Shown here: positions 3,468-49,717 of the stretch, piece by piece
Layout of the letters: each line of letters begins with the position of its first letter
Position numbering within the stretch: position 1 is the first letter of the stretch
DNA from: an uncultured Thermoplasmata archaeon
GTDB lineage: Archaea; Thermoplasmatota; Thermoplasmata; UBA10834
Reading direction: 5' to 3'
DNA length: 64,000 bases
NCBI GenBank assembly: GCA_963748615.1
Contig: CAVVJQ010000003.1
Span: forward strand, 304,599 to 368,598
The notes under the pieces: generated by a model
Told to the model about the DNA's origin: nothing
Databases searched by the model: none
What the model saw: only the letters and a program-made list of their open reading frames with translations
Made by a program: the position numbers and the translations under genes

Positions 3468-4721
3468 ATGCTATCTGAGATCTGGGCCGAGATATCCAAT
3501 GACCTGTGGTTCCAGGTCGCCATGCTGCTAGCGATTGCGATTGCGTCCAGCATGATATTCGTCAGAGTAGGGCTTCCGAAGACTGTGGGACAGATAGCAA
3601 TCGGCATCATAATCGGCCCCAGCGTACTCAACCTCATCACCATCTCGGTGAACGGGACGGACGGAGCAGGCAATACAGACATAATCACCCTATTGGCCAC
3701 CTTTGGCGCAACCGTCATGCTGTTCGTCATAGGATTGGAATGCGACTTCGGTGAGATCTACACGAAGAAGAACATATCCATCGCGATCGGCGGCATAACC
3801 CTCCCGTGGATAGGAGGGTTCGTGCTCGCATCCACACTCCTCCCAGGAGCGAACTTCGCGCAGTCCATCTTCGTCGGAACCGCCCTCGTCGCTACGAGCG
3901 TCGCAATCACCGGAGGCGTCCTGAGGGAGATGGGCATCATATCATCGAAGATGGCAAAGACCATACTCGGCGCGGCGGTCGTTGACGACGTGCTGGGGAT
4001 GATTGTACTCGCCATCTCCATCGGGGTCGGGACCGGTAGCGGTATCGATGTCTCAGATGTAGCGTTGATATCCATAGCAGCGATATTGTTCGTTGTTGGT
4101 GGCACTTTCGTTGGTTCTAGGATAATAGTGAAGATAATCGGCATGACTGAACGGCAGGGGCTCAAGCACGGCATACCCGAGAGCGGGTTCATTCTAGCGC
4201 TCTCATTCGCGTTCATTTACGCCTTCGTCTCCAACCAGATAGGCATCTCGGCTATCGTTGGAGCGTTTGTCGCGGGCACGAGTTTTTCGAGATGCGAGTA
4301 CAGGAAACAATTCAGGGAAGGAATCGTCTTCTTGGAATGGGCATTCGCACCGATCTTCTTCATATCGCTCGGGGTGCTCGTCGACATCAGGCTGCCTCTG
4401 GACATCTGGATTTTTGCGATCGCCCTAGCGGGAGTCGCGATCCTCACAAAAGTCGCGGGAAGTGCGATCCCCGCAAGGATATTCGGAATGACAAAGACCG
4501 AATCAGTGGCAATAGGTCTTGGCATGGCAGCCAGACTGGAAGTTGCCATGATCATTGCGCTCTATGGCTTGAATGAGGGCATCATAGACAATACGATCTA
4601 CTCGGTCATCGTGCTCATGGGAGTCATAAGCGTGCTCATCGCGCCAACCTTGCTGAGAAGAATCATGAAGAAGCTCCCAGTAACCAATGCCTCAAATGTA
4701 GTGGAGACCTGCGACATCTAG
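3468..4721 (+). CDS. cation:proton antiporter (CPA family Na+/H+ or K+/H+ exchanger)
   Basis: 417-aa polytopic membrane protein whose N-terminal and internal segments resemble the Kef/NhaP-type exchanger core. Confidence 0.75.
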   Translation: MLSEIWAEISNDLWFQVAMLLAIAIASSMIFVRVGLPKTVGQIAIGIIIGPSVLNLITISVNGTDGAGNTDIITLLATFGATVMLFVIGLECDFGEIYTKKNISIAIGGITLPWIGGFVLASTLLPGANFAQSIFVGTALVATSVAITGGVLREMGIISSKMAKTILGAAVVDDVLGMIVLAISIGVGTGSGIDVSDVALISIAAILFVVGGTFVGSRIIVKIIGMTERQGLKHGIPESGFILALSFAFIYAFVSNQIGISAIVGAFVAGTSFSRCEYRKQFREGIVFLEWAFAPIFFISLGVLVDIRLPLDIWIFAIALAGVAILTKVAGSAIPARIFGMTKTESVAIGLGMAARLEVAMIIALYGLNEGIIDNTIYSVIVLMGVISVLIAPTLLRRIMKKLPVTNASNVVETCDI

Positions 4722-5046: not shown

Positions 5047-7686
5047 ATGAGAGCTAGATATAGTGTGAAGAGAGCAGCAGCTATTCTGACATTCTTATTC
5101 GCGTTCGTACTCGTCGGGACCTCGCTCGGAGCGCTCAGCCTATTCGAGAACGCGTCTGCGGAAGACCTGCTGGGAATTGATGTTGACCGAACTTTCACTG
5201 TCGGCGTGGTGGACATGTCGATCTCCACGCTGAATCCGAACACATATGTGACTAGCAGCGAGGAAATGGTCATCGTCTCATGCTACAGCTCGTTGCTGCA
5301 ATACGATGAGGGCGGCAATGTGATAGGAGACCTTGCGAGGACTTGGACAACGGACCAGGACGGCCTCGTATGGCACTTCGACCTTGTGGATACGGCGTAC
5401 TTCTGCGACCCAATGGAACCGATTTCAAAAAACCACCAAGTCACTGCTGAAGATGTCATCTTCACATATGATAGCATCCAAGATGATGCCACCAGTCGAT
5501 TGCATTACGCTCTTCCGGACATCATTTCGGACATCTATTCTGAAGGGCAGTTCAGCGTGACAATTGAGCTCAGTCATCCATTCGCGGCGTTCCAGGATTC
5601 GCTCATCAATATCCCTATACTTCCCAAGTATGTCTGGGAAGGCGAGGACCTGACGAATTTTGACAACCTGCCGATGATTGGATCCGGGCCGTTCTACTAC
5701 GCAACTACGGGACTCCCTGACTCAGGCATCGTCGAGCTCAGAAAGAATCCCATCTGGCACATGACCGAAGAGCATGGATGGTCCATCAGGGTCGACAGAT
5801 GGCTCATCATAAACGAATTGGATACTAGCACGGCTTGGCTAGATGTATCACATGGCAACATAGATTGCATGTTGGATGTCCCAGGCAATGTATTCACATC
5901 CACACTTCCGATGCCGGAAGTCATAGGATTTCACCAGTCTGGAGGGTTTGTGTATGAGTTCAACCTCAACCAGATGACTGATGACATTAGAGAAGGTCTC
6001 GGAGGTCCCTTCAACGCAGGGACTAGTAACCAGCTGCTGCTTGACAGCACGGTCAAGATGGCTATTGCGATGAGTGTCGACAAGGACGCTTTTGTTCAAG
6101 AAGTGATAGATGGTTTGGGAGAGCCGGCGGATTCACTTATTCCTCATGCCAACCCATGGCACTTTGATTATCCAGACCCGATTCAATTCGACCCACTAGC
6201 AGCCAGGGAGATGCTGATGGACGCTGGATGGCGCTATGATATCACCGGAAACCAAGCATCCGAGAACACGGTTCCGTTATGCAAAGCTGGCGGGACGGAT
6301 CCCCTCTCGTTCAGGTTCTATACACTAAACACGGCCGTGCAATGGCAGATAGGTGCAGAGCTAATATTGAACTGGTGCCGCGAGACTGGGGTAGATCTCG
6401 ATCTGACATTCCTGAGCATTAACGAGATGAACACCGTGTGGAATTCCGCAGACTACGATCTTTGGTTGTGGGATTGGGTGTTCGATCCGCTCGGAGACCC
6501 ATCGATGAGCATACTCGAAGTGCTCACGACGGAAGCAATCGGTACCGACAGCGACGTGTTCTACTCCGACTCGACCTATGACGCACTTTACGAAGAGTCT
6601 CTCGTGACAATGGATCCTGTTCTCCGTGCACAGATAATCGATGAGATGCAGACAATGGCCTATGAAGACATGGGTTGCCAATGCATCGCCTACAGAGAAG
6701 ACCTGTACGCGTTCAACACTCAGCATTGGGAGAACTTCGGTGATCTGGACTCGAAGTATATGATGCGGCCTGATGTTTCCAACCTTTGGATATCCTTGAG
6801 CATGAGCCCTGTGGAAAACGCGGCACCCCATATCTATGTGCATTCGGATAACGTCGTCGCAGAGGTTGGCGAGGAAGTGGCCCTCTTCGTAGCCGCGACG
6901 GACGATGACGCTTCGACAGTGCTCGAATACAGATGGTTCTGGGGCGATGGCACTTCCAGCGATTGGAGCTATTCACCCACTGCCTCGCACACATATCTGA
7001 AGAACGGGGTGTATACCGCTGACATCGCAGTGAGAGAGGCATCCTCATCTAATGGGTATGACGACCACTTCGTCACGACCGCTGACCTGACTTTGGCCAT
7101 ATACGATTTCTCCAACGAAGCGCCTGTCATTCTCAGCATAATGTACAGCCCATTGGACCCGGATACATCCAATAGCGTCATGTTCTCTGCAGATGTCTAC
7201 GATTCAGAAGGAGATCCGTTGGAGTACTCGTGGAACTTCGGAGATGGCACTGGGGCGAAGGGACTGAGCGTGACACATGTGTTCCAGGAAGCTTCTGCAT
7301 ATCTTGTGACGCTGTCGGTGACCGACAATATGCTCGGAATCGGAACGAGACCTGCAACATGCTCGGTCCTCGTTATGATCGACTCGAACTTGCCTCCATC
7401 GTTATCGGTGCCTGATTTCGATCCGATAGCGCCCAAGACAGAGACGGAGTTCCATGTGTACGCGAGCGACCCAGATGGGGACCAGCTTATGTTCGTGTGG
7501 GACTGGGGAGATGGCACTTCGACTGAGACATATGAACCGTTTGCGACCCATTCGTACAACCGCGGCGGAACCTATGTCATCAATGTGATGGTCACGGATC
7601 TCACAGGCCTGTCAGGGCATGAGGTACGAGATACCGGAACGGTCTATGTGTACAGCGGCCAATCGAAACACGGCGGCACAAAGTGA
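5047..7686 (+). CDS. secreted family-5 solute-binding protein (Opp/Dpp-like) fused to C-terminal PKD domains
   Basis: Signal peptide MRARYSVKRAAAILTFLFAFVLVGTSLGALS. An SBP_bac_5-like domain is followed by at least 4 PKD repeats with WxFGDG/WxWGDG motifs (WFWGDGTSS, WNFGDGTGA, WDWGDGTST). A TATA-like tttatata lies about 70 nt upstream. The in-frame stretch upstream of 5047 has no signal-peptide logic. Confidence 0.75.
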   Translation: MRARYSVKRAAAILTFLFAFVLVGTSLGALSLFENASAEDLLGIDVDRTFTVGVVDMSISTLNPNTYVTSSEEMVIVSCYSSLLQYDEGGNVIGDLARTWTTDQDGLVWHFDLVDTAYFCDPMEPISKNHQVTAEDVIFTYDSIQDDATSRLHYALPDIISDIYSEGQFSVTIELSHPFAAFQDSLINIPILPKYVWEGEDLTNFDNLPMIGSGPFYYATTGLPDSGIVELRKNPIWHMTEEHGWSIRVDRWLIINELDTSTAWLDVSHGNIDCMLDVPGNVFTSTLPMPEVIGFHQSGGFVYEFNLNQMTDDIREGLGGPFNAGTSNQLLLDSTVKMAIAMSVDKDAFVQEVIDGLGEPADSLIPHANPWHFDYPDPIQFDPLAAREMLMDAGWRYDITGNQASENTVPLCKAGGTDPLSFRFYTLNTAVQWQIGAELILNWCRETGVDLDLTFLSINEMNTVWNSADYDLWLWDWVFDPLGDPSMSILEVLTTEAIGTDSDVFYSDSTYDALYEESLVTMDPVLRAQIIDEMQTMAYEDMGCQCIAYREDLYAFNTQHWENFGDLDSKYMMRPDVSNLWISLSMSPVENAAPHIYVHSDNVVAEVGEEVALFVAATDDDASTVLEYRWFWGDGTSSDWSYSPTASHTYLKNGVYTADIAVREASSSNGYDDHFVTTADLTLAIYDFSNEAPVILSIMYSPLDPDTSNSVMFSADVYDSEGDPLEYSWNFGDGTGAKGLSVTHVFQEASAYLVTLSVTDNMLGIGTRPATCSVLVMIDSNLPPSLSVPDFDPIAPKTETEFHVYASDPDGDQLMFVWDWGDGTSTETYEPFATHSYNRGGTYVINVMVTDLTGLSGHEVRDTGTVYVYSGQSKHGGTK

Positions 7687-7757
7687 CGAGGAGCCAGCAC
7701 CGAGACGCAAGAACCGTGTCCTCCGAAAAGACGTCTCATTAAGGGGCTGAGAAATGA

Positions 7758-7800
7758 GGGGGCCATAGCCCCCAACAAACCTCTTTTTCTCATTTTAACA
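7758..7800 (+). terminator. GC hairpin plus T-tract terminator downstream of the SBP-PKD gene
   Basis: gggggc-cata-gccccc is a perfect 6-bp GC stem. It is followed by aacaaacctctttttctcatttt. Confidence 0.5.
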
Positions 7801-7952
7801 TAAGACGAAAAGGGCGATGACCGCCAACCATCTGAACGCTCTCCTCGGAGTCATGACTGTCTTCGAAAATCCAAACGCATCATGTACAATGGAATGTGGG
7901 TAATGGGAATCGGGTACCACTTGGCAATCTCAGACGGTTGTGTCCTTGATCA

Positions 7953-8486
7953 TCATTTCGTGACATATCCTAATGGAAGAATCTTTGGCCCACTCCATTC
8001 ATCACGAAGGATGCTGTACATCGCGGTGTCCCTATAAGCACCTCTACTGAAGAATGATTTGCGTATCAGTCCCTCCATAGTGAATCCTGCCTTCTCTAGG
8101 ACCCTCTGAGACGCCTTATTGTCCGGATGCGTCTCGGCCTGGACACGCACTACAGCCTTGTGAAGGAACAGGTAGTCCACTATCATCTGCACGACTTCGC
8201 TACCGTATCCCTTGCCGCGCTCGTCCTTGATCAGCATGTAGCCTATTCCAAGACAGTCCTTCGATTTGAAGTGGCCGACGTATCCGATCTTGGTCCCATC
8301 CTTCTTCTCGACCAAATACCACTGTCCATCACCCCTGCCATCGTGTTGCTTTTCGAGATCTTCCAGAGATACCTGATCGAACGGCTCGAACTCACCAACG
8401 AAATCCACATCGTTCATCCATTGCTTAATCAGCGAGAGATCGCTCTTCTCGACAAGTTCCAGGTTGATCTTGTGACCTTTCAGCAT
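7953..8486 (-). CDS. GNAT family N-acetyltransferase (RimL-like)
   Basis: Acetyl-CoA binding motif region ...RGKGYGSEVV...QRVLEKAGF. Start moved to the internal Met MLKGHKINLE because the upstream extension is atypical. Confidence 0.7.
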   Translation of the reverse strand: MLKGHKINLELVEKSDLSLIKQWMNDVDFVGEFEPFDQVSLEDLEKQHDGRGDGQWYLVEKKDGTKIGYVGHFKSKDCLGIGYMLIKDERGKGYGSEVVQMIVDYLFLHKAVVRVQAETHPDNKASQRVLEKAGFTMEGLIRKSFFSRGAYRDTAMYSILRDEWSGPKILPLGYVTK

Positions 8487-8638
8487 ATGAGCCCATGGCT
8501 CAATCACAATCCGGCCAGATGAACCTTTCCACCACCATGCGTTACTAGAAGTTCTCCGAGCATTCGAGAAGTCGGAAAAAGGTCCGAGTTTCAATCCCCT
8601 CGATTGACCAAAAAGACGACTATACTAGCGATGTGTTG

Positions 8639-8760
8639 GAGTGGACCGAAGGGGATTTGAACCCACATTTTCGACTGGCTCGGCTGAAAACGGTACATAG
8701 TCCTTCCAGAATGGCATCTCGGGAGGGAGCGGAAAACTTGGTGGCGACCCATGGATTACA
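8639..8760 (-). repeat. tRNA-like element A: exact copy of tRNA-Ala 3' end (positions ~51-73 plus 3-nt trailer) with a ~95-nt conserved arm
   Basis: Bases 8639-8664 (gagtggaccgaaggggatttgaaccc) are identical to 12104-12129. The extended sequence is homologous to element B (10391-10500). No 5' acceptor strand complementary to TCGGTCC could be found. Confidence 0.55.
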
Positions 8761-8862
8761 TGTCAGCCGAATAGTTTAAATGCCATCCTTCAATCGAACA
8801 GCCAGCAGCACCATCCGAGAGAGCGGCTCAACTCCGCACGAAGGGGTCTGCACGGTGATATC

Positions 8863-10215
8863 TTGAAGAAGACAGATGTTCTAGTTGTTGGAGGCGGGCC
8901 CGCTGGCAGCCTCGCGGCGATGACAGGAAAGGCAAGCTTCCCTGACAAGGAATTCATTATCATGAGCAACGAGACCCATTCCATGGTCCCGTGCGGAATA
9001 CCGTACATATTCGGTACCTTGAACGGGGTGGAGAAGAATCTTCTTCCCAGCGGGAGGTTCGCTAATGCAGGAATCGGACTCATCACGGGAGAGCTCACCT
9101 CGATTGACAAGGAAGCGCGCATCTGTGAGATGGCAGACGGGACCAAGATAGGTTACGATCGCCTTGTTCTCGCGCTTGGCTCATTCCCAGTCGTCCCGAA
9201 GTGGCTCAAACAGACGGACCTGAAGAACGTGCACGTGGTCAAGAAAGAGAAAGAACACTTAGATATGCTCTTCGAATCCCTGCAGGAACTGAAGAAGATC
9301 GTAATCGTTGGTGGAGGTTTCATTGGCGTGGAACTCGCCGACGAGCTTAACAAAGCAGGCAAGGATGTGACCGTCGTCGAGATACTCCCACACATACTGG
9401 GTCTGGCGTTTGACCAGGACATTGCGACGGAGATTGAGAAGATTATCACACAGAGAGGGGTCAAGCTCAGAACAAGCATGGGGACCAAACAGATTCTCGG
9501 CACGGATAAGGTAGAGGGTGTGCTGCTTGAGAATGATGAGAGGTTGGAAGCTGACGCCGTAATACTTGCAGTAGGATACAAACCGAATACAGCGGTTGCG
9601 GAACTCTCGAAGATATCACTCAACGAGATGGGGTTCATACGTGTGGATGAGTACATGCGCACCGAGGATTCCAACATCTATGCCGTTGGCGACTGCGCAG
9701 AGAAGCGAGACTTCTCGACCAGGAAAGTATCCGGTCTCATGCTAGCATCGACAGCGTCTACCGAGGCAAGGATAGCGGGCATGAACCTCTATGGACTCTC
9801 CGTCGTGAAGGCATTCAAGGGCACTATCGCGATATTCTCAACGGCCATTGGGGATCACGGATTCGGTTCGGCAGGTCTCACCGAGACCGTAGCCAAGCGA
9901 GAGGGATTTGAAATCGTCACGGGTGTATTCGATGGCGTCGACAAACATCCGAGCACACTTCCTGGAGTGCACAGGCAGCTGGTCAAACTGGTCGTTGCGA
10001 GGGACTCCGGCGCAATACTGGGCGGCGAAGTCCTATCCGGGACGAGCGCAGGGGAGATAGTCAACCTGATCGGTTTCATGATCCAGAACAGAATGACCGT
10101 CGACGCAGTCCTGAGCTCCCAGATAGGAACACATCCACTGCTTACGGCTCCACCCACTGCGTACCCTCTGATCAAGGCGGCCGAAAACGCTGCTAGGAAG
10201 ATACGCGGTCCTTGA
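8863..10215 (+). CDS. FAD-dependent pyridine nucleotide-disulfide oxidoreductase (NADH oxidase / CoA-disulfide reductase type)
   Basis: N-terminal FAD-binding motif VVGGGPAG, a single redox-active Cys motif SMVPCGIPY, and a second NAD(P)-binding fold GGGFIGVELA. TTG start. TATA-like tttaaat at ~8773. Confidence 0.8.
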   Translation: MKKTDVLVVGGGPAGSLAAMTGKASFPDKEFIIMSNETHSMVPCGIPYIFGTLNGVEKNLLPSGRFANAGIGLITGELTSIDKEARICEMADGTKIGYDRLVLALGSFPVVPKWLKQTDLKNVHVVKKEKEHLDMLFESLQELKKIVIVGGGFIGVELADELNKAGKDVTVVEILPHILGLAFDQDIATEIEKIITQRGVKLRTSMGTKQILGTDKVEGVLLENDERLEADAVILAVGYKPNTAVAELSKISLNEMGFIRVDEYMRTEDSNIYAVGDCAEKRDFSTRKVSGLMLASTASTEARIAGMNLYGLSVVKAFKGTIAIFSTAIGDHGFGSAGLTETVAKREGFEIVTGVFDGVDKHPSTLPGVHRQLVKLVVARDSGAILGGEVLSGTSAGEIVNLIGFMIQNRMTVDAVLSSQIGTHPLLTAPPTAYPLIKAAENAARKIRGP

Positions 10216-10390
10216 AGCGTTGCAGTTCACGAGATGCGACAAGATCATAGTCCGTTAGCATGCCAGTGCTGAGACTCGTGAGAAGTGATCTATACGATCC
10301 TATTTGGGTTCGCAGAGTACCGACAATCACTTACTCAATTCATCCAATCTAGTGCAGGTCCCCTAACAGCAGGGTTCCTCATCGAATAGT

Positions 10391-10500
10391 TGGCCGAAAG
10401 GGATTTGAACCCATATTCTCGACTGATTAAACTCAAGAAGGCACATGGTCATTCCAGAAAGGCGCCTCAGGAATGGTAGCTGGAATGAGGATCGGACGAA
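10391..10500 (-). repeat. tRNA-like element B (diverged paralogue of element A)
   Basis: Ends with GGGTTCAAATCCCTTTCGGCCA (T-arm/acceptor-3'-like). The remaining ~90 nt align with element A (shared blocks cattccagaa, catg, tcgactg). It sits just upstream of the catalase gene. Confidence 0.45.
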
Positions 10501-10566
10501 CCAGTACATATCTGCCGAGAGATGCAAATACCCATAACGCGTTCACAAGTTGGGGAGGATTGGAGG

Positions 10567-12081
10567 ATGACCGGTAGAAAGAGGAAGAAGAGCCTCACGA
10601 CAGCTTTCGGGAGACCCGTGGGAGATGACCAGAACAGCGAGACCGCAGGGACACGTGGCCCGGTGTTGATGCAGGATGTCCACCTGCTTGAGAAGTTGGG
10701 ACACTTCGACAGAGAACGCATACCGGAGAGGGTAGTCCATGCCAAAGGAGCGGGTGCCAGCGGATACTTTGAGGTCACAGCCGATGTCACTGAGTACACG
10801 AAAGCTAAGTTCCTCTCCAATGTTGGCAAGCGGACCGATGTCTTCGTGCGATTCTCCACCGTAGGAGGCGAGAAGGGCTCGGCGGACTCTGAGCGTGACC
10901 CAAGGGGGTTCGCGATCAAGTTCTATACCGAGGAGGGCAACTACGATCTGGTGGGTAACAATACACCGGTATTCTTCATAAGGGATCCGCTAAAGTTCCC
11001 GGACTTCATCCACACGCAGAAGCGCAACCCTGCAACGAACCTCAAGGACCCAAACATGTTCTGGGACTTCCTCTCGCTCACCCCAGAATCCATCCATCAG
11101 GTGACTATCCTCTTCTCTGATCGCGGCACTCCTGCGACTTACCGACACATGAATGGATACAGCAGCCACACTTACAAATGGCACAATGCGAAGGGAGAGC
11201 AGTTTTGGGTGAAGTACCATCTCAAGACAAATCAAGGCATAAAGAATCTAACAAGGCAGGACGCTGAAGCGATGCGCGCTAAGGATCCAGACCACGCGAC
11301 CAGAGATTTGTACAACGCGATTGCCCGAGAGGACTATCCCTCATGGACTCTGGAGATTCAGGTCATGGGGGTCTCCGATGCGAAGGACTATCGTTTCGAC
11401 GTGTTCGACATAACGAAGGTTTGGCCCCATGGAGACTACCCAGCCATCAGGGTTGGAGAGCTGGTGCTGAACCGCAATCCCGAAAACTACTTCGCAGAGG
11501 TCGAGCAAGCTGCATTCGCCCCCAGCAACCTCGTCCCAGGAATCGCTCCTTCGCCAGATAAGATGCTCCAGGCACGTCTGTTCTCATATCACGACACACA
11601 CATACACAGGCTCGGGCCCAACTACCACCTGATACCGGTCAACAGCCCGAAAAACGCACTCGAAATGAGCTACCAGCGTGACGGGTCCATGCGCGTTGAT
11701 TCGGGCGGGGGGTCCGGCCCGAACTACTGGCCCAACACATTTGGAGGACCAGCACCAGATATTGCCAGTAAGGATCCGCCCTTCGCGGTGAATGGGGACG
11801 CGGGCAGGCACTCCTACACTCATCCGAATGACGATTTCGTACAGCCAGGAGACCTGTACAGGAAGGTTATGACCGATAAGGATCGGGAACACCTAGTGGG
11901 GAACATCGTGAGCCACCTCGGAGGAGCGCAGAAGAGGATTCAGCTCAGACAAACCGCTCTGTTCTTCAAGGCGGATGCCGACTATGGCAGAAGGGTAGCT
12001 GATGGCCTTGGCATCGATTTGAAGGTGGTCGAGAGGTTGGCAGGGATGACTCAGGAGGAAAGAGTCACTGAAACCAGCTGA
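10567..12081 (+). CDS. katE: monofunctional heme catalase
   Basis: [23 protein letters not shown] is the catalase active-site signature with the distal His. Full-length clade-3-like catalase. Start set at [15 protein letters not shown], the conserved catalase N-terminus. Confidence 0.9.
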
Positions 12082-12106
12082 GACGTCGGAAACGACAAAG
12101 TCCGAG

Positions 12107-12178
12107 TGGACCGAAGGGGATTTGAACCCCTGACCTCCTGCTTGCAAAGCAGGCGATCTTCCGCTGATCTATCGGCCC
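12107..12178 (-). tRNA. tRNA-Ala (anticodon UGC)
   Basis: Cloverleaf: acceptor GGGCCGA/TCGGTCC with a G3:U70 pair, the Ala identity element. D-stem GATC/GATC. Anticodon stem CCTGC/GCAGG with loop TTTGCAA. T-arm AGGGG-TTCAAAT-CCCCT. Discriminator A; CCA not encoded. Confidence 0.8.
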
Positions 12179-12523
12179 CTGCGGGATGGGGGCTCATTGG
12201 CCGTTTCGGTTAAATATCTTTCCTGGCACGGGTTCTGTATGGTTATTGGATGGTGTTGTTGATGGTGTCTTTTTCCGGTGCCACAAGTATCCCACACATC
12301 GCACATGTAATGTGCATATAGCCGCGGGGGGGATGTGACCATGGCCAGATGCTTCCTTCGATGCTCCACAGAGCAGTCGTGTTCCAGCGTGACGCGGTGA
12401 TGACCCTCTTCGACCCAGAGACGGGCGCACGGTCGGAGCCGAATGGAACGAGTCAATTGGTCCGGCGGTCATTAGGACCACCACCCGATAATCGACAGGA
12501 CCCTCGGACCAAACCTCATCGGA

Positions 12524-13690
12524 TCAGACAGATGAGAACACACAGGTGTCAGACCCGGTGGCTATACATGAGATTTCCCTGATGATGACCTTTCGTCCCA
12601 CGGCTCTCGTGACCAGTTCGCTCAGGATCGGCTCGAGGAACCTGCATATGGTATGATCGAAGCGGACGCAGCATCTTGCGAACACGGATTCGATACTGAT
12701 GGTGGTCTCTCCACTGGCCATGTCAATCCGATCTAACGAGTAGAAAGTCGCCCATCCGCTCCGAACCAGCGTCTGCAGGCCACGGTCGATGACCTCCCTA
12801 CCCTGCCCAGAGACATCCTTCGGTCTCAAGGGCACCATTGATTCCAGCATCGCATAGAGTTCCTGCACACCTTTGGCGGATGATTCATGATACTTGGCGA
12901 ACATCGAGGCTAGTCCCTGGATATCGGCTTGGACAAGTAGCGGGGAATCCGATGCCAATTGGCTGGAAGATGATGAATCCGAGGACGGACTGCCTCCTCC
13001 GAATGAGAATGATTCGGGTTGTTGACTTGCGCTGCCCCCTCCACCAGACATCGCATGACCATCACCGCGGTCTTCTCTGCGGAGCTCTTCAGGCTTTACA
13101 CGTCTGTGCCGTCCATCCTCCTTGCCTCTATCATATTCTGCATCCAGTTTTCGGAGGACCCCCAATCCTTGGGCGAGGGACATTAGTTCCTTTCGTTTTG
13201 AGCCCACCCATCCGACCGTCTCCATATGTCCGTAATAACCGACCTCCACCCCCAGTTCGTACCCTTGCTTGAATAAAGAGGTGACTGCTTTTGAAACAGT
13301 GGATCCTGAGGCGGACCTGAGTCTATCATCCCTGAGGGCGTCCTTCATCGCCCGCAACAATTCCTTCCCTTCGAAAGGCTTCGAGATGAAACCAACAGCA
13401 CCTCTTGCCAACGCTATTTCCTTTATCCTGGAATCTGCGCTAAGGAACAGGACCCTCGCAGACGGGTCAGTGGCGAGTATCTCATCCATTGCCTCGATAC
13501 CACTCTTGACCGGCATCCTGTGGTCCATTAGAATCAGGTCGGGTTTGGGTGAGAGTTCAAGGTACTTCTTGACCGCGGAGTCCCCGTCGAAGGCGAACCC
13601 CACCACGTCGAAACCCTTCAAAGAGAGTGTGTCCCTGAGTATCTGGACTATAAGCTTCTCGTCATCGACTATGAGTATCCTCGGTGGCAC
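12524..13690 (-). CDS. response regulator, receiver domain plus C-terminal V4R domain
   Basis: CheY-like receiver (LIVDDE...DLILMDHRMP...K). Gly/Ser-rich linker. C-terminal Cys-containing V4R-like domain (CCVRFDHTICRF...SCIATGSDTC). GTG start abuts the HK stop codon. Confidence 0.7.
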   Translation of the reverse strand: MPPRILIVDDEKLIVQILRDTLSLKGFDVVGFAFDGDSAVKKYLELSPKPDLILMDHRMPVKSGIEAMDEILATDPSARVLFLSADSRIKEIALARGAVGFISKPFEGKELLRAMKDALRDDRLRSASGSTVSKAVTSLFKQGYELGVEVGYYGHMETVGWVGSKRKELMSLAQGLGVLRKLDAEYDRGKEDGRHRRVKPEELRREDRGDGHAMSGGGGSASQQPESFSFGGGSPSSDSSSSSQLASDSPLLVQADIQGLASMFAKYHESSAKGVQELYAMLESMVPLRPKDVSGQGREVIDRGLQTLVRSGWATFYSLDRIDMASGETTISIESVFARCCVRFDHTICRFLEPILSELVTRAVGRKVIIREISCIATGSDTCVFSSV

Positions 13691-15769
13691 CTAACCACCT
13701 CGTAGAAGCAATATCGAGACCTTTGTGCCTTGTGTCCAATCGCCCTGCACGCGATTAGATATGGATATCTGGCCGCGCGAGCGCTCGATGATCATCTTCG
13801 AGATGAAGAGACCCATGCCAAAACCGCGTTTGATCTCCCAGTAATCCTTTGACGGCTTGAGCAGGTTGGGCTTGACATCGTCTGGAATGCCTGTCCCCCT
13901 GTCCTCTATGACAACCTCCAAATAGCCATGTCGGTGAGGAGATTCCGTCAAAGATATGGTCACATCTATGGATTCGGTGACGGTATTCTCGATGGAGTTC
14001 ACCAGTATGTTCTCGATGGCCACCTCAATCTTTGAATCGGCCAGCGCGATGGCATGAGGCGTGGCGGGATCGAAATCGATGGAGATTGCCTGGTCATCCC
14101 CCGCGCCCGTCATTTGCCTTGCGATGAGATCCATGATTGACTGCGCGAGATCGACCTCGACCATAGCGGTGGGTTGCTGGCTAACCCCGGTCAGCTCGCG
14201 AAGCCTCTCGATCATCGTGGATATGACCCGCACCTGTTTCCTCATATCCTGTGCATGTTGCCGGACTGCATCTGGTGTCTCGGCATTGTCCTCGATGAGC
14301 TCACTGAAGGACATCAATGCCGTGGAGTAGTTTGCTATATCGTGGCACAATAGATCGAGGTAGGTCGCCGATTCTCCCCTTGCCCGTTCCGCCTCGCTCA
14401 GCATCTGCATCCTCTGGACAGCGTATGCAAGCGTGTTCGCCTGTATCTTGAAGAATATCTTAGCTTGGTCGTCGAACGGTGAGTGGTCCTGGGACAGCAG
14501 CAGAACATATCCAAGCACATGTGGCCCTGATGTCATCCGCGCCCATATCCCAGAGGACATGCCAGAGGACTGCAGGACCTCCGACACGAGAGGCGAACCA
14601 GCACACTCCACAGATTCAAAACCAGAGGAATCCTGAGAGGGAAATAGCGAGGTCGGCTCGATTCCACGGGAATCATCAAGAGATATTGGTGTGCCTTCGA
14701 GCAGGCCGAACTTGGATTCGAGAAACAACCTGCCAAAGTCGGAGTCCATCAAGTATATCATGCCGGCATCGGCACAGAACGAGGTCGTCAGTGCGCGGAT
14801 GGCATTGTCCAGGAGTTCCTGCATGTTCTCCGCGGAGGACATCACCCATAGCAGGTCGGTCATCGATGAGCGTTCCCTATCGAGTTCCCCCAGCTCGGAC
14901 ATGTCCCTCATCATCACCAAGATGCTTGAGACAGAGCGGTCCGGAGCGATCATGGGTGCGATGCTGACATCATACACCATAGCCTTTGCGGATTGGTCAT
15001 CGGCGACTATTCTGACCGGAAGGAACCTGTTGTGTGTGGATCTCTTCGTGACACGGCACGATTCGATCATATCCATCAATGATCCAGTATCCGCGGCCTG
15101 GAAGACTTCCATGAACGGCTTTCCCATGACTCCACTATGAGGTCCCCCGGGAGGCATATACTGCAAAAGGTGTGAATTATGGTTGATTATCCGGAGATCC
15201 GAATCCAGCTCGATTATGGCCATGGGAGCGCTCTCGATCAGATTCTTGGTCCTCTGGAGAAGATCCTCGATCATCCTACCGCGGGCGATCACTTCCTGCG
15301 ACGATCGCATCCGCTCAGAGATATCACGACAGAAGCTGTCGATCCCGACGATCCGGCCGTCCTCGGACCTCAGAGGTATTGCGCTATGTTCCGTCCATAG
15401 GACGGAACCGTCCTTTCGCATCATGCGAGCAACAGCGGGCTCGGTATATGGCACGCTACCATCGAGGAGGCCAAGGAATATCGGCAAGTCATCGGGATGA
15501 AACAGGCTCGGCAAAAGGTTCGGGTTGGCATGGAAATCCTTTGGAGAGTGGCCTAACAATGTTTGACATGAAGGGTTGATGTACATCGTCCGAGGTTCTG
15601 GAACCGCCAGATGCCTGAATATGACATCCCTGGAATTCTCCACCAAGAATCGGAACGTCGCATGATGGTCTCCAGACTGATGGCCATGAGACCCGGCCCC
15701 ATCATCTGCTCGCTCTGCCCCCATGTATGACTCCTTCGTTTTGACCACGCAATTTCCGGAATGCATCAC
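13691..15769 (-). CDS. sensor histidine kinase (PAS/GAF sensors, HisKA, HATPase_c)
   Basis: H-box region LLCHDIANYSTAL. C-terminal ATPase motifs (N, G1 DRGTGIPDD, G2 GFGMGL). Immediately upstream of the response regulator gene. Confidence 0.8.
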   Translation of the reverse strand: MMHSGNCVVKTKESYMGAERADDGAGSHGHQSGDHHATFRFLVENSRDVIFRHLAVPEPRTMYINPSCQTLLGHSPKDFHANPNLLPSLFHPDDLPIFLGLLDGSVPYTEPAVARMMRKDGSVLWTEHSAIPLRSEDGRIVGIDSFCRDISERMRSSQEVIARGRMIEDLLQRTKNLIESAPMAIIELDSDLRIINHNSHLLQYMPPGGPHSGVMGKPFMEVFQAADTGSLMDMIESCRVTKRSTHNRFLPVRIVADDQSAKAMVYDVSIAPMIAPDRSVSSILVMMRDMSELGELDRERSSMTDLLWVMSSAENMQELLDNAIRALTTSFCADAGMIYLMDSDFGRLFLESKFGLLEGTPISLDDSRGIEPTSLFPSQDSSGFESVECAGSPLVSEVLQSSGMSSGIWARMTSGPHVLGYVLLLSQDHSPFDDQAKIFFKIQANTLAYAVQRMQMLSEAERARGESATYLDLLCHDIANYSTALMSFSELIEDNAETPDAVRQHAQDMRKQVRVISTMIERLRELTGVSQQPTAMVEVDLAQSIMDLIARQMTGAGDDQAISIDFDPATPHAIALADSKIEVAIENILVNSIENTVTESIDVTISLTESPHRHGYLEVVIEDRGTGIPDDVKPNLLKPSKDYWEIKRGFGMGLFISKMIIERSRGQISISNRVQGDWTQGTKVSILLLRGG

Positions 15770-25802: not shown

Positions 25803-26041
25803 CCGCAGTGGATTGGAAGGTAGATAGGACGATGGCCGCATGGGGGATCGCATTCGGGATCCTCGCCATACTCACGGGAGCGTTCCTGTTGAGTGCGGTG
25901 GAAGGCGGTTTCATCGCAGAGGGATTCTTCCTCATAGTCATCTCATGGGTCATCGTCCTGGTTGCGGTGGCGAAGTTTTTCCAGGTGGTCGGAAGATGGT
26001 CCAAGGGGGAAGGCCTGAGGAGGAAGAAGGAGGAGTGGTAG
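25796..26041 (+). CDS. small membrane protein (2 TM helices)
   Basis: 81-aa protein with two hydrophobic helices and a basic C-terminus. Overlaps the nitroreductase stop by 7 nt. Confidence 0.35.
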   Translation: MVTAVDWKVDRTMAAWGIAFGILAILTGAFLLSAVEGGFIAEGFFLIVISWVIVLVAVAKFFQVVGRWSKGEGLRRKKEEW

Positions 26042-26111
26042 CCCCGGGAGGATTCGAACCTCCGTCGCAGGCTCCAAAGGCCCGCATGATTGACCACTAC
26101 ACTACGGGGCT
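26039..26111 (-). tRNA. tRNA-Gln (anticodon UUG)
   Basis: Acceptor AGCCCCG/CGGGGCT. D-arm GTAGTGG. Anticodon stem CGGGC/GCCTG with loop CTTTGGA. T-arm GGAGG-TTCGAAT-CCTCC. Discriminator A. 3' CCA is encoded. Confidence 0.75.
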
Positions 26112-26181
26112 GTTGCGTTCCGTGCGGCTACATTGCAGCCTTTCCATATTAACCGTTTCCAAAGAACTTGAAAGCCGGCTC

Positions 26182-27069
26182 TCACTTTCTCGAGATTATT
26201 ATGACGCCGACGGCGGTCAACGCGCCACCCATGCCAGATACCCATCCTATCGTTTCACCGAGCAACATCCAAGCGAAGACGATCGTCACGATCGGCATGA
26301 AGTACATGGAAGCTCCAGTGACGGACGCGGCCAATCCTGTCAGCGCCCTGAACCAGAGCACATACCCGATCACAGTGCACAGTACTCCGACATAGAGCGC
26401 AGCCACGAAGAAGCTGAGGGGGAATGCCTGGACCGTGAGCACGGCATCTGTTACGGCGAACGGCACCATCATGATCGTGCCGATTATCGTGATATAGGCA
26501 GTGCTTGCGATGGGATCGTACTTCTTCACGATCTTCTTGCCCTCGACCGTGTAAACCGCCCAGAAGAAAGCGCATATGACCTGCAGCAACCCGCCGACGA
26601 TCACCTGCCATTCGGATATGAAGGATATGGACCCGTTGGTGATGACCAACACGGAGCCGCATGCGGCGATGGCGAGTCCGATCTTCTCTTCGCCGGAAAT
26701 CTTCTCGCCCAGACGTCGAGCGGAAAGCACGAAGATCATCACAGGGCATAACAGAAACACCAGGATGGATGATATCGAGGCACCTGCGAGACCGATGCCG
26801 ATGTACTGCAGTATGAAGTATATGCCGACGCCAATGAACGCCAGCATCAGGAAGCTCCTCCGATCCTCCCTGTCAACACCGCTCGGACGTCTCATGAGAA
26901 GATATGCCCCGAAGATAAGGGATGCCACAACGAACCTGGCCATCGAGAGCATTACAGGCGAAGAACCATCCTTGATGGCGACATCGACGAATACGAAGGC
27001 GCTACCCCAGATGATGGCCGTCACTGCCAGAAGGATGAACAGGAAGGTCTTTCGCTGCATCGTCGTCAC
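26182..27069 (-). CDS. EamA/DMT superfamily transporter
   Basis: 295-aa protein with 10 TM helices and duplicated EamA-like halves. Confidence 0.8.
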   Translation of the reverse strand: MTTMQRKTFLFILLAVTAIIWGSAFVFVDVAIKDGSSPVMLSMARFVVASLIFGAYLLMRRPSGVDREDRRSFLMLAFIGVGIYFILQYIGIGLAGASISSILVFLLCPVMIFVLSARRLGEKISGEEKIGLAIAACGSVLVITNGSISFISEWQVIVGGLLQVICAFFWAVYTVEGKKIVKKYDPIASTAYITIIGTIMMVPFAVTDAVLTVQAFPLSFFVAALYVGVLCTVIGYVLWFRALTGLAASVTGASMYFMPIVTIVFAWMLLGETIGWVSGMGGALTAVGVIIISRK

Positions 27070-47020: not shown

Positions 47021-48046
47021 ATGATGATTTTGAAGATGAAGAAAGAGGACCTTCCTGCTTTCCTCGAGAGCGCAAAGGAATGGGGAGAGCTATGGGGTCC
47101 TGCGAGCAAGGGAGGGAAGACCACCTACGCGAAGGTCGAGTCGCTCTCCCAGATGGATCTGAAGGCGACCAGGACGGTCATCCCGCCGAAGAAGTTCCTA
47201 TACCCGCCAAAGTTCACAATGTTCGACTTTGACGAGGAAGGTTTCGTCGAGAGGACGGGCGACGTCTCGAAGAAGATTCTGTTCGGTCTCCACCCATGCG
47301 ACATACACGGGATATTGATCATGGACAAGCTCTTCCTGGAGACATACAAGGATCCGTATTACGCCGAGCGCAGGGAGAAGACCATACTCATGGGTCACAG
47401 CTGCATCCCGGATGAGAGGTGCATGTGCTTCGCGACGAACACGGATTTCGTCGCTGAGGGCTTCGACCTGTTCTTCACGGACCTCAAGATGTTCTACCTG
47501 GTCTGGGTCGGCTCGAGCAGGGGACACGACCTCATCAGGATGAGGCCCGAGCTGTTCAGCAGGGACATCAACAAGGACGATATCCTCAATTACACTGAAT
47601 ACCGGAAGTGGAAGAACTCCCAGTTCAAGGCGAAGGTGGACTTCACCGGCATGCCTGACATATTCGAGCTCGCATACAGCAGCCCGATATGGGAGGAGCT
47701 GGGGGAGAAGTGCCTGTCATGTGGACAGTGCTCCATGGTCTGCCCGACCTGCAACTGCTTCAACGTGGTCGACGAGGTCGAACTCGGGACCGCGGAAGGT
47801 ACGAGGGAACGGTCCTGGGACAGCTGCATGTTCAGGGAGTATTCGCTCGTAGCGGGCGGCCACAACTTCAGAGACAAGAGAGCAGACAGACTGAGGCTCT
47901 GGTACACTCACAAACTGCAGGCATACATCGGCGAGTTCGGGAAGCCGGCCTGCGTTGGCTGCGGAAGATGCGTCTCGACCTGCCCGGTCGATATCAATGT
48001 CGAGACGGTCTCGCAGGCGTTGAAGGAACAGGAGGTGGGCAAGTGA
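47021..48046 (+). CDS. hydB: sulfhydrogenase-type NiFe hydrogenase beta subunit (HydB/AsrA-like, 4Fe-4S)
   Basis: Two ferredoxin-like CxxCxxCxxxCP motifs (CLSCGQCSMVCP, CVGCGRCVSTCP). Homology pattern of group-3b beta subunits. Confidence 0.8.
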   Translation: MMILKMKKEDLPAFLESAKEWGELWGPASKGGKTTYAKVESLSQMDLKATRTVIPPKKFLYPPKFTMFDFDEEGFVERTGDVSKKILFGLHPCDIHGILIMDKLFLETYKDPYYAERREKTILMGHSCIPDERCMCFATNTDFVAEGFDLFFTDLKMFYLVWVGSSRGHDLIRMRPELFSRDINKDDILNYTEYRKWKNSQFKAKVDFTGMPDIFELAYSSPIWEELGEKCLSCGQCSMVCPTCNCFNVVDEVELGTAEGTRERSWDSCMFREYSLVAGGHNFRDKRADRLRLWYTHKLQAYIGEFGKPACVGCGRCVSTCPVDINVETVSQALKEQEVGK

Positions 48047-48945
48047 AGAGACTGTGCGTAGTGCTGGACGACAGGGAGGTCGATGAGAACCCATACCAGC
48101 CGGACATGTGGAGGATCGTCCGCAAGTACCCGTTGACCAGCGATGTGAATTTCTTCCAGGTGAGGCCCGTGGATGTGGACGAGGCGTTGAAGATGAGCTA
48201 TCTTCCTGGGCAGTTCGTCATGCTCTCCGTCCCTGGAGAGGGTGAGGCACCGTTCTGCATATCGTCCACGCCTTCGAGACCGGGACTCCTGGAGTTCTGC
48301 ATAAGGAAGACGGGGACCCTGACGGAATCCCTCTTCGGACTGAAGGAGAACCAGACCATCGGGATAAGAGGACCTTACGGGAACACTTTCCCCATCGAGA
48401 AGATGGAAGGCAAGGACATCATGATCGTCGCCGGAGGTATGGGAGTCGCTCCGCTGAGGTCGCTGCTGCTTTACATCCTGGACAACAGGGACAAGTTCGG
48501 CAAGGTGACCTACCTGCACGGCGCGAAGAACCCTGGTGAGATGCTCTTCAGGGATGAGTTCTTCCAGCTGAAGGAGCGGGAGGACCTGAACTGTCTCTTG
48601 ACGGTGGACAAGGACGACACGGGCAAGTGGACCGAGAAGGTCGGATTGATCACGACCCTGTTCAAGGACCTCGGACCGGTCGACGCGAAGAACACATACG
48701 CGGCCGTGTGCGGTCCGCCTATCATGTACAAGTTCGTGATGGAACACCTGGTGAAGCTCGGGATACCGAAGCATCAGATCGTCATGACCCTGGAGAGGAG
48801 GATGAAGTGTGGGGTCGGCAAGTGCGGGCACTGTGCCATAGAATATCTGTACACTTGCATCGACGGTCCTATATTCACCTACTGGGACGTGCTCCATATG
48901 AAGGAGCTCATAGGGAGGGGTGTCAGTGACAAAATCATCGCCTAA
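48043..48945 (+). CDS. hydG: sulfhydrogenase gamma subunit (FAD/NAD(P)-binding, 2Fe-2S)
   Basis: Ferredoxin-reductase-like fold (GPYGN, MIVAGGMGVAPL). C-terminal CGVGKCGHC cluster. GTG start overlaps the hydB stop (GTGA). Confidence 0.8.
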   Translation: MKRLCVVLDDREVDENPYQPDMWRIVRKYPLTSDVNFFQVRPVDVDEALKMSYLPGQFVMLSVPGEGEAPFCISSTPSRPGLLEFCIRKTGTLTESLFGLKENQTIGIRGPYGNTFPIEKMEGKDIMIVAGGMGVAPLRSLLLYILDNRDKFGKVTYLHGAKNPGEMLFRDEFFQLKEREDLNCLLTVDKDDTGKWTEKVGLITTLFKDLGPVDAKNTYAAVCGPPIMYKFVMEHLVKLGIPKHQIVMTLERRMKCGVGKCGHCAIEYLYTCIDGPIFTYWDVLHMKELIGRGVSDKIIA

Positions 48946-49717
48946 GATCGGAATATACGGTTTCACGGGTTGCGCAGGCGACCAGCTCATGATACTCAAC
49001 TGCGAGGATCAGCTGGTGGACATCTTCGGCGCGACCGAGATACGCTCGTTCGTGATGGCGAAGAGCGACAACCACGAGGGAGAGCTGGATGTCGCGCTCG
49101 TTGAGGGTTCGATATCCACCGAGGCGCAGCTGAAGCATCTGAAGGATATCAGGGAGCGCGCCAAGATCCTCATCGCGATCGGCACATGCGCCTGCTGGGG
49201 AGGGCCCCAGGCGATGAAGCTCGGCGAGGGCGGATACGAGGAGCGCTACAAGAAGGTCTATGGCAACGCCAAGATCACCATATCCAAGGCATTCGAGGCG
49301 CAGCCACTGGACGCGTTCGTCAAGGTGGACATGAAGATCCCGGGATGCCCGATCGACAAGATGGAGTTCTTGAAATCAGTATCGAAACTGGTAGCTGGCA
49401 AACACCCATACCTGCTGAAGTCACCCGTATGTCTGGAGTGTAAGTGGAAGGAGAACACCTGCCTGCTCAACGAAGGCAAGTTCTGCGCAGGTCCACTCAC
49501 GAAGGGCGGTTGTGGCGCGGTATGCCCGTCGCACAACCTACCGTGCGTCGGCTGCTGGGGACCGACTGACGACCTGAACGTGACATCGGAGTACAACCTG
49601 CTCAAGGAGAAGGGGTACGATCCGGCTGAGATCATCACGAAGATCAGGAAGTTCGGAGGGTCTGGTGTCGTAGAGCTTGTCAAGGACCTCGAGAAGAAGA
49701 AGGGGGCTAAGAAATGA
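48920..49717 (+). CDS. hydD: NiFe hydrogenase small (delta) subunit
   Basis: N-terminal GCAGD plus proximal-cluster Cys (GTCACWGG, CxxC...CVGC). Confidence 0.8.
   Translation: MSVTKSSPKIGIYGFTGCAGDQLMILNCEDQLVDIFGATEIRSFVMAKSDNHEGELDVALVEGSISTEAQLKHLKDIRERAKILIAIGTCACWGGPQAMKLGEGGYEERYKKVYGNAKITISKAFEAQPLDAFVKVDMKIPGCPIDKMEFLKSVSKLVAGKHPYLLKSPVCLECKWKENTCLLNEGKFCAGPLTKGGCGAVCPSHNLPCVGCWGPTDDLNVTSEYNLLKEKGYDPAEIITKIRKFGGSGVVELVKDLEKKKGAKK

Follow-up and report, generated by a model that had tools for sequence, protein, structure and literature searches.

A window of 64,000 nt from an uncultured Thermoplasmata archaeon (contig CAVVJQ010000003.1, positions 304,599 to 368,598) contains, at 8639-12129, a small islet that carries an oxidoreductase gene of the Nox/CoADR family (nox) and a heme catalase gene and that ends at a tRNA-Ala(UGC) gene. 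We propose, with a probability of roughly 0.7, that this islet is a tandem of integrase-less modules (arm L with nox, arm M with catalase) brought by site-specific recombination to the tRNA-proximal edge of a hypervariable island at tRNA-Ala(UGC). The proposal rests on duplicated tRNA 3' ends, on conserved non-coding arms with sharply defined module boundaries, and on the state of the same tRNA gene in related genomes.

Within the 64 kb there are exactly two occurrences of the 26-nt sequence GAGTGGACCGAAGGGGATTTGAACCC, at 8639-8664 and 12104-12129, and shuffled sequences gave an expectation of zero matches even when up to three mismatches were allowed. The right-hand copy lies within an intact tRNA-Ala(UGC) gene recognized by ARAGORN and by Rfam (70.1 bits) and spans the T-loop, the 3' strand of the T-stem, the 3' acceptor strand, the discriminator and two to three trailer bases; the left edge of the tRNA is at 12106 or 12107. 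Identity at 26 of 26 positions, including the trailer bases of the tRNA, is not incidental. At the left-hand copy, neither ARAGORN nor Rfam detects a tRNA, and no 5' acceptor strand was found that pairs or covaries with it. A sequence-only reading made earlier of this DNA had claimed the identical 26-mers, the intact tRNA on the right and the lack of a tRNA body on the left, and all three hold; the left copy is not a complete functional tRNA gene by either program.

A third copy of the repeat is present at 10387-10412. It is diverged (22 of 26 positions, 85% identity) and carries a change in the acceptor stem; the outer repeats are perfect. The middle copy, like the left one, was rejected as a functional tRNA gene because ARAGORN and Rfam were negative and there is no covarying partner strand. 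From these two tRNA-3'-end-like segments, termed cores, the homology continues rightwards into paralogous non-coding elements of ~100 nt that are 76% identical over 85 nt. The resulting order is flank, core-arm L, nox, core-arm M, catalase, core-tRNA body, so that the islet is two modules rather than one, with an internal diverged att-like site. The sequence-only reading was thus right about a tRNA-bracketed insert but had taken it for a single islet, having overlooked the third core and the paralogous arms.

We used a pattern taken from the core-arm junction to search for further copies, and then built an nhmmer profile from the loci found. Comparison loci are labelled L001 to L041. The pattern matched three loci in Thermoplasmata metagenome-assembled genomes (MAGs), 18 metagenome contigs and, as a fourth genome locus, a Woesearchaeota MAG; viral contigs gave no match to it. 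At least 25 full copies of ~125 nt were detected by the profile in loci L001-L022. Along the plus strand of the window, the full element opens with the tRNA-3'-end-like core, continues through a highly conserved block (ACATTTTCGACTGGCTC), a variable segment and an inverted repeat (CCTTCC-N14-GGAAGG), and closes with a G/C hairpin followed by CAAACCCCTT. Arm L is 88-98% identical to copies in L001, L002, L007 and L011, and it has neither codon periodicity nor an Rfam family. Many copies of the element are at contig ends, where repeats are expected. In most loci, a cargo open reading frame (ORF) on the minus strand ends 0-50 nt from the hairpin end. The cargo is a diverse set of accessory genes encoding M14 peptidase, membrane proteins, Zn-ribbon, HEPN, Imm5-like, pentapeptide, MttB and MIP proteins and a restriction-modification methylase.

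Pairwise comparisons place the module boundaries within the core. Between L010 and L012, identity is 99% over the stretch that runs from one core through a 466-aa gene to the next, and the neighbours differ on both sides. L036 encodes the closest nox homolog (96% identical in amino acids) whose DNA is 91% identical to the window over 8754-10411, and this homology ends inside the middle core, after ...GGTTTGAACC. Among the copies of the element, variation begins directly after GGGTTCAAATCC: the T-loop and the arm are invariant, and the 3' strand of the T-stem and the acceptor strand vary. This is the pattern expected if the crossover occurs in the T-loop and the outer part is derived from the target.

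We examined whether the element could instead act as RNA or protein. It matches no Rfam family. The consensus structure predicted by RNAalifold is weak (covariation term -0.02), and changes in the T-stem (L014) and acceptor-like parts are uncompensated among copies. Variation at the three codon positions is 0.35, 0.32 and 0.30, with no 3-periodicity. Lacking an Rfam match, covariation and codon periodicity, the element is therefore read as a DNA site. Several specific candidates were also rejected. A tRNA with an intron, a split tRNA or a tRNA-like RNA finds no 5' acceptor partner and no Rfam hit. A coding fragment or SSV-type int(N) spanning the att site and arm is interrupted by stops or has lost its ATG in several copies. 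A four-stem nested fold of single-stranded DNA or RNA has weak support, since its four pairs changed on both sides were reached by 35 of 500 shuffles. The hairpin end is not a genome-wide terminator motif, with just two exact CAAACCYCTT sites in the 64 kb, and no inverted copy of the internal motif ATCTCGGGAAGGG stands out in the left flanks (mean best match 8.52, against 8.54 in control windows).

The same data bear on the idea that the element is a tRNA-derived non-autonomous transposable element, similar to a miniature inverted-repeat transposable element (MITE), or a small tRNA-like RNA gene, with nox and catalase as resident genes. The element is indeed multi-copy, highly conserved and often at contig ends; its full form has terminal inverted repeats of ~10 nt (AAGGGGATTTG / CAAACCCCTT) and nested inverted repeats, one full copy folds as single-stranded DNA with a z-score of -2.0, and covariation is weakly above that in shuffles. 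However, the terminal repeat is weak, target-site duplications were not observed, every copy found has variable cargo next to it, and the blocks of homology run from one core to the next with the cargo gene included. The variation in the tRNA-like part is of the kind expected for sequence taken from the target. For an RNA gene, the covariation term and the lack of an Rfam family are again unfavourable, and the window copies fold no better than shuffles (z-score above 0 in three of four strand folds). Moreover, nox and catalase are not at this site in relatives, as described below. We regard an explanation of this kind as quite improbable.

We then compared the tRNA-Ala(UGC) site among relatives. 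To the right of the tRNA lies a gene for a response regulator (RR) with V4R (RR-V4R), which has orthologs in L038 (77%), L039 (59%) and L040/L041, and in all four loci it likewise adjoins tRNA-Ala(UGC). L040, a 906-kb contig, is syntenic with the window through TGT, Endo_dU, S12, S7, EF-2, EF-1a, S10, histidine kinase (HK), RR and tRNA-Ala(UGC). Neither L038 nor L040 has nox or catalase at this tRNA. In both, a flank termed F1 (...CTGGCTATGCGTAGGTG) is joined straight to the tRNA-Ala 3' end; in the window, as in L001, L010 and L022, F1 is instead found left of the displaced core, which is followed by the arm. The last 14 nt of the displaced flank together with the core (8625-8664) match the reverse complement of L038 at 4078-4117 with 87.5% identity. 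By position, F1 stands in the classical relationship of attB to attL. The sequence-only reading had suggested looking in relatives for an empty tRNA-Ala site, which L038 and L040 provide, and its view that a duplicated tRNA 3' segment marks the far end of a tRNA-targeted insert is supported by these comparisons.

Other relatives are differently occupied. L039 has a single module, a full element plus a Zn-ribbon ORF of 169 aa, with a 17-nt repeat on either side. L041, which comes from the same sample as L040, is 99.8% identical to it from the tRNA 3' end rightwards, and left of the tRNA it has ~3.9 kb unrelated to L040, with two elements and other cargo. The replacement between these strains ends exactly at the tRNA 3' end. 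Together, the comparison of L038-L041 indicates that tRNA-Ala(UGC) bounds a hypervariable island and that this island is polymorphic in a population.

A tRNA gene with a displaced 3' fragment is the accepted signature of tyrosine-integrase islands, many of whose attP sites lie in the T-stem region (PMC4383910), and tRNA-integrated islands have been described in archaea (PMC9897764). On this model, the modules would arrive by conservative site-specific recombination, presumably of the tyrosine-recombinase type, with a crossover located in the T-loop and the 3' portion of the tRNA gene; the predicted junction segment is GGATTTGAACC. Integration would regenerate an intact tRNA on the right, and the 3' end that the tRNA had before, with the flank once downstream of it, would be moved to the left (8597-8664). 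Each module opens with a tRNA-3'-end-like core followed by a conserved non-coding arm of ~70-100 nt, which is probably an attP-type arm recognized by the recombinase. That enzyme would have to act in trans, as it is encoded neither in the window nor beside any copy examined. As divergence affects the inner core but not the outer repeats, the two modules most likely entered as one pre-assembled composite, or else the inner junction is older than the outer ones.

Our searches for an integrase were uniformly negative. None was found among the ~29 window ORFs scanned with Pfam, in agreement with the sequence-only reading that the islet lacks one, and the 22-nt spacer between catalase and the tRNA (12082-12103) is too short to contain the remains of one. 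When 56 ORFs of at least 170 aa from L001-L022 were scanned in bulk with Pfam, no recombinase emerged, and precomputed Pfam tables for L023-L041 contained no integrase. Two proteins from L008, of 412 and 328 aa, were considered as integrases and rejected, with no integrase match in Pfam or PHROGs and no sequence match in PDB.

Several observations weigh against the site-specific model. With a recombinase found nowhere that was scanned, the enzymatic step is purely an inference, and the contigs showed no circular or excised forms. Under simple serial accretion, the junction nearest the tRNA should be the youngest, yet the inner core is the diverged one. The window modules are atypical, with cargo directed away from the arm and the arm without its hairpin end. 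The difference between L041 and L040 is a replacement of the whole segment and not a clean insertion, a pattern that could also arise from homologous recombination anchored at one end in the conserved tRNA. Finally, L023 (CP070748.1, a relative's complete genome) has, at 10001-11728, the closest catalase homolog (87% identical) immediately upstream of a tRNA-Ala of the CGC isoacceptor, preceded only by a decayed remnant of the element. Given L023, the linkage of catalase to tRNA-Ala may be old rather than the result of a recent insertion.

The most serious rival dispenses with a dedicated site-specific system altogether. Here, the tRNA and the ~100-nt arms would anchor homologous recombination after DNA uptake, shuffling the genes between them. 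No integrase is linked to any copy, the arms (86-99% identical) are long enough, and the L041/L040 pair, which is 83% identical in the left flank and 99.8% on the right, resembles an imported tract that ends in the tRNA; this rival fits L040/L041 in particular. However, homologous recombination fails to yield a displaced tRNA fragment next to the old flank (F1, core and arm), which reciprocal insertion does produce. In addition, breakpoints recur within the same ~20-nt core, and the direct repeats are only 17-26 nt long. We therefore consider homologous recombination unlikely and retain site-specific recombination as the preferred model.

Features of the islet and its surroundings are collected in Table 1.

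Table 1. Features at the tRNA-proximal edge of the tRNA-Ala(UGC) island (positions in the window).
Feature	Positions	Strand	Evidence or comment
Weak partial match to element hairpin end (profile positions 1-69); array membership uncertain	7718..7785	-	nhmmer E = 4.8e-5
Displaced flank, beside tRNA-Ala 3' end before the proposed insertion	8597..8638		88% identical to left flank of L022 element
Left att-like core	8639..8664	-	Perfect 26-nt copy of tRNA-Ala(UGC) 3' end, without tRNA body
Arm L, non-coding, hairpin end missing	8665..8746	-	Core + arm = profile positions 32-125, nhmmer E = 1.5e-27
nox promoter and 5' untranslated region	8747..8862	+	Motif ACATGTCAGCCGA 8758-8770; TATA-like TTTAAAT 8776-8782; Shine-Dalgarno-like GGTGAT 8853-8858
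nox, FAD-dependent pyridine-nucleotide-disulfide oxidoreductase, Nox/CoADR family	8863..10215	+	Pfam Pyr_redox_2 (1.5e-58) and Pyr_redox_dim
3' flank of nox module, travels with nox	10216..10386	+	L036 homology through to middle core
Middle att-like core, junction between the two modules	10387..10412	-	Diverged copy (22/26) of tRNA-Ala 3' end
Arm M, second arm copy, hairpin end missing	10413..10490	-	Core + arm 10393-10490 = profile positions 27-124, nhmmer E = 1.1e-18
Catalase promoter and 5' untranslated region	10491..10566	+	Motif ACATATCTGCCGA 10506-10518; Shine-Dalgarno-like GGAGGA before ATG 10567
Catalase, monofunctional heme, 504 aa, likely start 10567	10567..12081	+	Pfam Catalase (8.4e-198) and Catalase-rel
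Spacer, catalase stop codon to tRNA 3' end	12082..12103		22 nt
tRNA-Ala(UGC), intact, attB-like anchor	12106..12178	-	ARAGORN; Rfam tRNA 70.1 bits

The 3.4-kb interval between the outer repeats holds two genes and no others, and the cores are intergenic. As in the sequence-only reading, they encode a Nox/CoADR-family oxidoreductase and a heme catalase. The nox translation has a single active-site Cys in SMVPCGIPY, a Cys motif at the level of the family. It scored 185.8 against the H2O-forming Nox model NF046103 (cut-off 600) and 225.5 against the NCBIfam CoADR model (cut-off 458), and every NCBIfam equivalog score falls under its cut-off. These scores do not establish the H2O-forming type that the sequence-only reading had named.

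Both genes share a 13-nt motif, ACATRTCWGCCGA, located ~10 nt upstream of their TATA-like boxes (8758-8770 and 10506-10518). The motif is also found upstream of homologs in L023 (9932-9944, catalase), L036 (5-17) and L037 (561-573) and is a candidate common operator for an oxidative-stress regulator; the motif is independent of the mobile element. We considered whether the left and middle elements might themselves be duplicated regulatory regions, serving as an oxidative-stress promoter or operator with only an incidental likeness to tRNA. Both do lie upstream of O2-detoxification genes, and ACATRTCWGCCGA precedes both TATA-like boxes. Nevertheless, the motif is outside the element, in the promoter of each gene, and is also present at element-free nox loci; the element itself accompanies many unrelated genes, mostly at their 3' ends; and the perfect 26-nt match with its trailer bases is not incidental. 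Duplicated regulatory regions are thus the least probable of the explanations considered, and very improbable as such.

Next, we asked where nox and catalase came from. Homologs of nox with 77-96% identity are from Thermoplasmatota where named, and the next-best matches fall to 63%. Orthologs at 86% identity occupy at least three other genomic contexts, all without the element. These element-free loci have only the promoter of nox itself in common with the window, from ~8747, and their homology begins within 8747-8862 (from 8747 in L037 and at 8754-8779 in L030-L035). The catalase family is highly conserved, with at least 79% identity across Thermoplasmatota, ANME-2, Spirochaetes and Desulfobacterota; of these groups, Thermoplasmatota supply the nearest matches (83-87%). 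Catalase was found in at least three contexts, and one homolog (85%) is in an unrelated context. These distributions support mobility of nox and catalase within the clade, as judged from the sequences compared. The composition of the islet is host-like, with a tetranucleotide z of -0.75 and a GC content of 0.537 against 0.539 for the window, and no compositional anomaly was found by either measure. Given this composition and the Thermoplasmatota affiliation of the closest homologs, import from outside the clade is not supported. The sequence-only reading had called these classic horizontally moved genes and had proposed GC and tetranucleotide skew as a check; on both counts the islet resembles its host.

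Islands of the Islander type provide the closest precedent, including the archaeal PYG1 and TKV-like examples, which likewise combine an intact tRNA with a displaced 3' fragment in direct orientation (PMC4383910, PMC9897764). They also share a crossover in the T-stem/T-loop, as proposed here, and an unoccupied site in relatives. At 3.4 kb and with intergenic cores, the islet exceeds the Islander length minimum of 2 kb and keeps the fragment outside conserved coding sequence. It lacks the tyrosine integrase that Islander looks for, with only nox and catalase between the repeats. In contrast to these islands, which are usually 9-23 kb or more, the units here are ~1.7 kb with one gene each. There is also no integrase inside or beside the insert, a second att-like site is internal, and a conserved arm of ~100 nt is common to many unrelated cargos.

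Tycheposon islands of Prochlorococcus and integrase-less cis-mobilizable remnants resemble the present system in their few tRNA anchors, scattered partial tRNAs and adaptive cargo (bioRxiv 10.1101/2020.12.28.424599). Tandem accretion in those islands pushes older elements inwards, and populations are heterogeneous at the site, as here (bioRxiv 10.1101/2020.12.28.424599). Tycheposons, however, come with a tyrosine or serine recombinase and with replication genes of their own, and no such genes are linked to the modules described here. The host here is an archaeon, and a module comprises one gene together with a conserved arm.

A bolder version of site-specific recombination is possible, and we put it forward only tentatively: Thermoplasmata may have an integron-like cassette system of their own, in which tRNA 3' ends (mainly of tRNA-Ala) would be the fixed site, the imperfectly palindromic element of ~100-125 nt the cassette site, and an unlinked recombinase the agent that captures, excises and reshuffles single genes, so that nox and catalase would be two cassettes. 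Integron cassettes with attC and attI sites, archaeal ones included, similarly pair a single ORF with an imperfectly palindromic 3' element of ~100 nt, form tandem arrays beside a fixed site in which the same cassette may have different neighbours, and are commonly found in arrays without a nearby integrase (CALIN-like) (PMC9668308). Consistent with reshufflable single-ORF units, stop codons abut the element and L010 and L012 share one unit; the window units are atypical in that their cargo is reversed. There are also clear differences from integrons. No IntI was found, and the tRNA is flanked by RR-V4R and HK genes. A tRNA 3' end serves as the fixed site, the element terminates in a copy of a tRNA, and typical cassettes here have a promoter of their own. 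A classical attC was rejected, as the aligned copies, judged by eye, show no conserved RYYYAAC...GTTRRRY pair or R''/L''/L'/R' organization. We found no description of this element family in the literature searched. The kind, a tRNA-targeted islet, is known, and the cassette-like variant is apparently new.

Several further observations concern the element family. A second, unrelated arm type (GAGCCAGTRTGTYACGACTCGAATTCAATCAGCGGGAAA...CTAAACC) follows tRNA-3'-like cores in L036 (~1660-1740, to the right of nox) and, in the reverse complements of L038 (~215-300) and L040 (~5985-6070), at the far left limit of the island. The core at this far-left boundary in L038 and L040 derives from a different tRNA (..GTCTGGATWTGAACCC). 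A diverged element that opens with a tRNA-Ala(CGC)-type 3' end (TGGACCCTGTGGG) is present in the reverse complements of L038 (1630-1773) and L040 (7427-7540), directly after a 269-aa minus-strand ORF; there are therefore sub-families that correspond to other tRNA-Ala isoacceptors. In L023, the downstream flank of tRNA-Ala(CGC) resembles the left flank of the L007 element (81% over 78 nt). An internal cassette junction, GGGATTCAAATCGAAGGGGATTTGAACCC, found at 1690-1720 of L012 and also in L005, L008 and L010, contains an inverted repeat of ~11 nt around CGAAGG. It is composed of the core and an inverted T-loop-like sequence from the neighbouring cassette and, to judge from this arrangement, may be a complete recombination site.

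Elements with tRNA-Ala(UGC)-type cores also lie 0.4-4.4 kb from genes for tRNA-Gly(GCC), tRNA-Pro(UGG) and tRNA-Ala(GGC), at 17-138 and 1502-1575 of L002 (oriented), 234-358, 4396-4432 and 4803-4879 of L021 (oriented), and 4470-4593 and 6565-6614 of L013. The relative orientation is the same in each case, and the 3' ends of these tRNAs are unlike the core. To the right of two cassettes in L008, positions 5924-14559 form a plasmid- or provirus-like stretch that encodes an Eco57I-type restriction-modification methylase, a Prim-Pol protein and the unknown 412-aa and 328-aa proteins; within 14 kb, this locus has neither a recognizable integrase nor a tRNA.

Within the window, the partial element match at 7718-7785 has the sequence GGGGGCCATAGCCCCC...CAAACCTCTTTTT with the tail CAAACCTCTT, and it also scores as a terminator-like hairpin. 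It is placed between an SBP/PKD gene and a GNAT gene (7953-8594) that may itself represent an older, decayed unit of this island. Elsewhere, a cluster at 47689-51006 encodes a FAD/NAD-binding Fe-S subunit and the small (Oxidored_q6) and large subunits of a NiFe hydrogenase, consistent with the group-3b type named in the sequence-only reading. A 303-aa ORF at 25840-26751 has no Pfam match, overlaps tRNA-Gln(UUG) at 26036-26111 and is probably not a real gene.

Ecologically, these results indicate that an archaeon of the anaerobic-type Thermoplasmata can gain or lose genes for oxygen defence in the form of small units plugged in at a tRNA gene. The conserved and easily searchable DNA element marks such units across many uncultured relatives. 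If there is no dedicated recombinase, the locus is still a clear and well-delimited tRNA-anchored hypervariable island with polymorphism at the population level. If there is one, its minimal att site could become a candidate genetic tool, and the system would be an archaeal platform for cassette capture, distinct from integrons, that offers a handle on the flexible gene pool of a large uncultured group.

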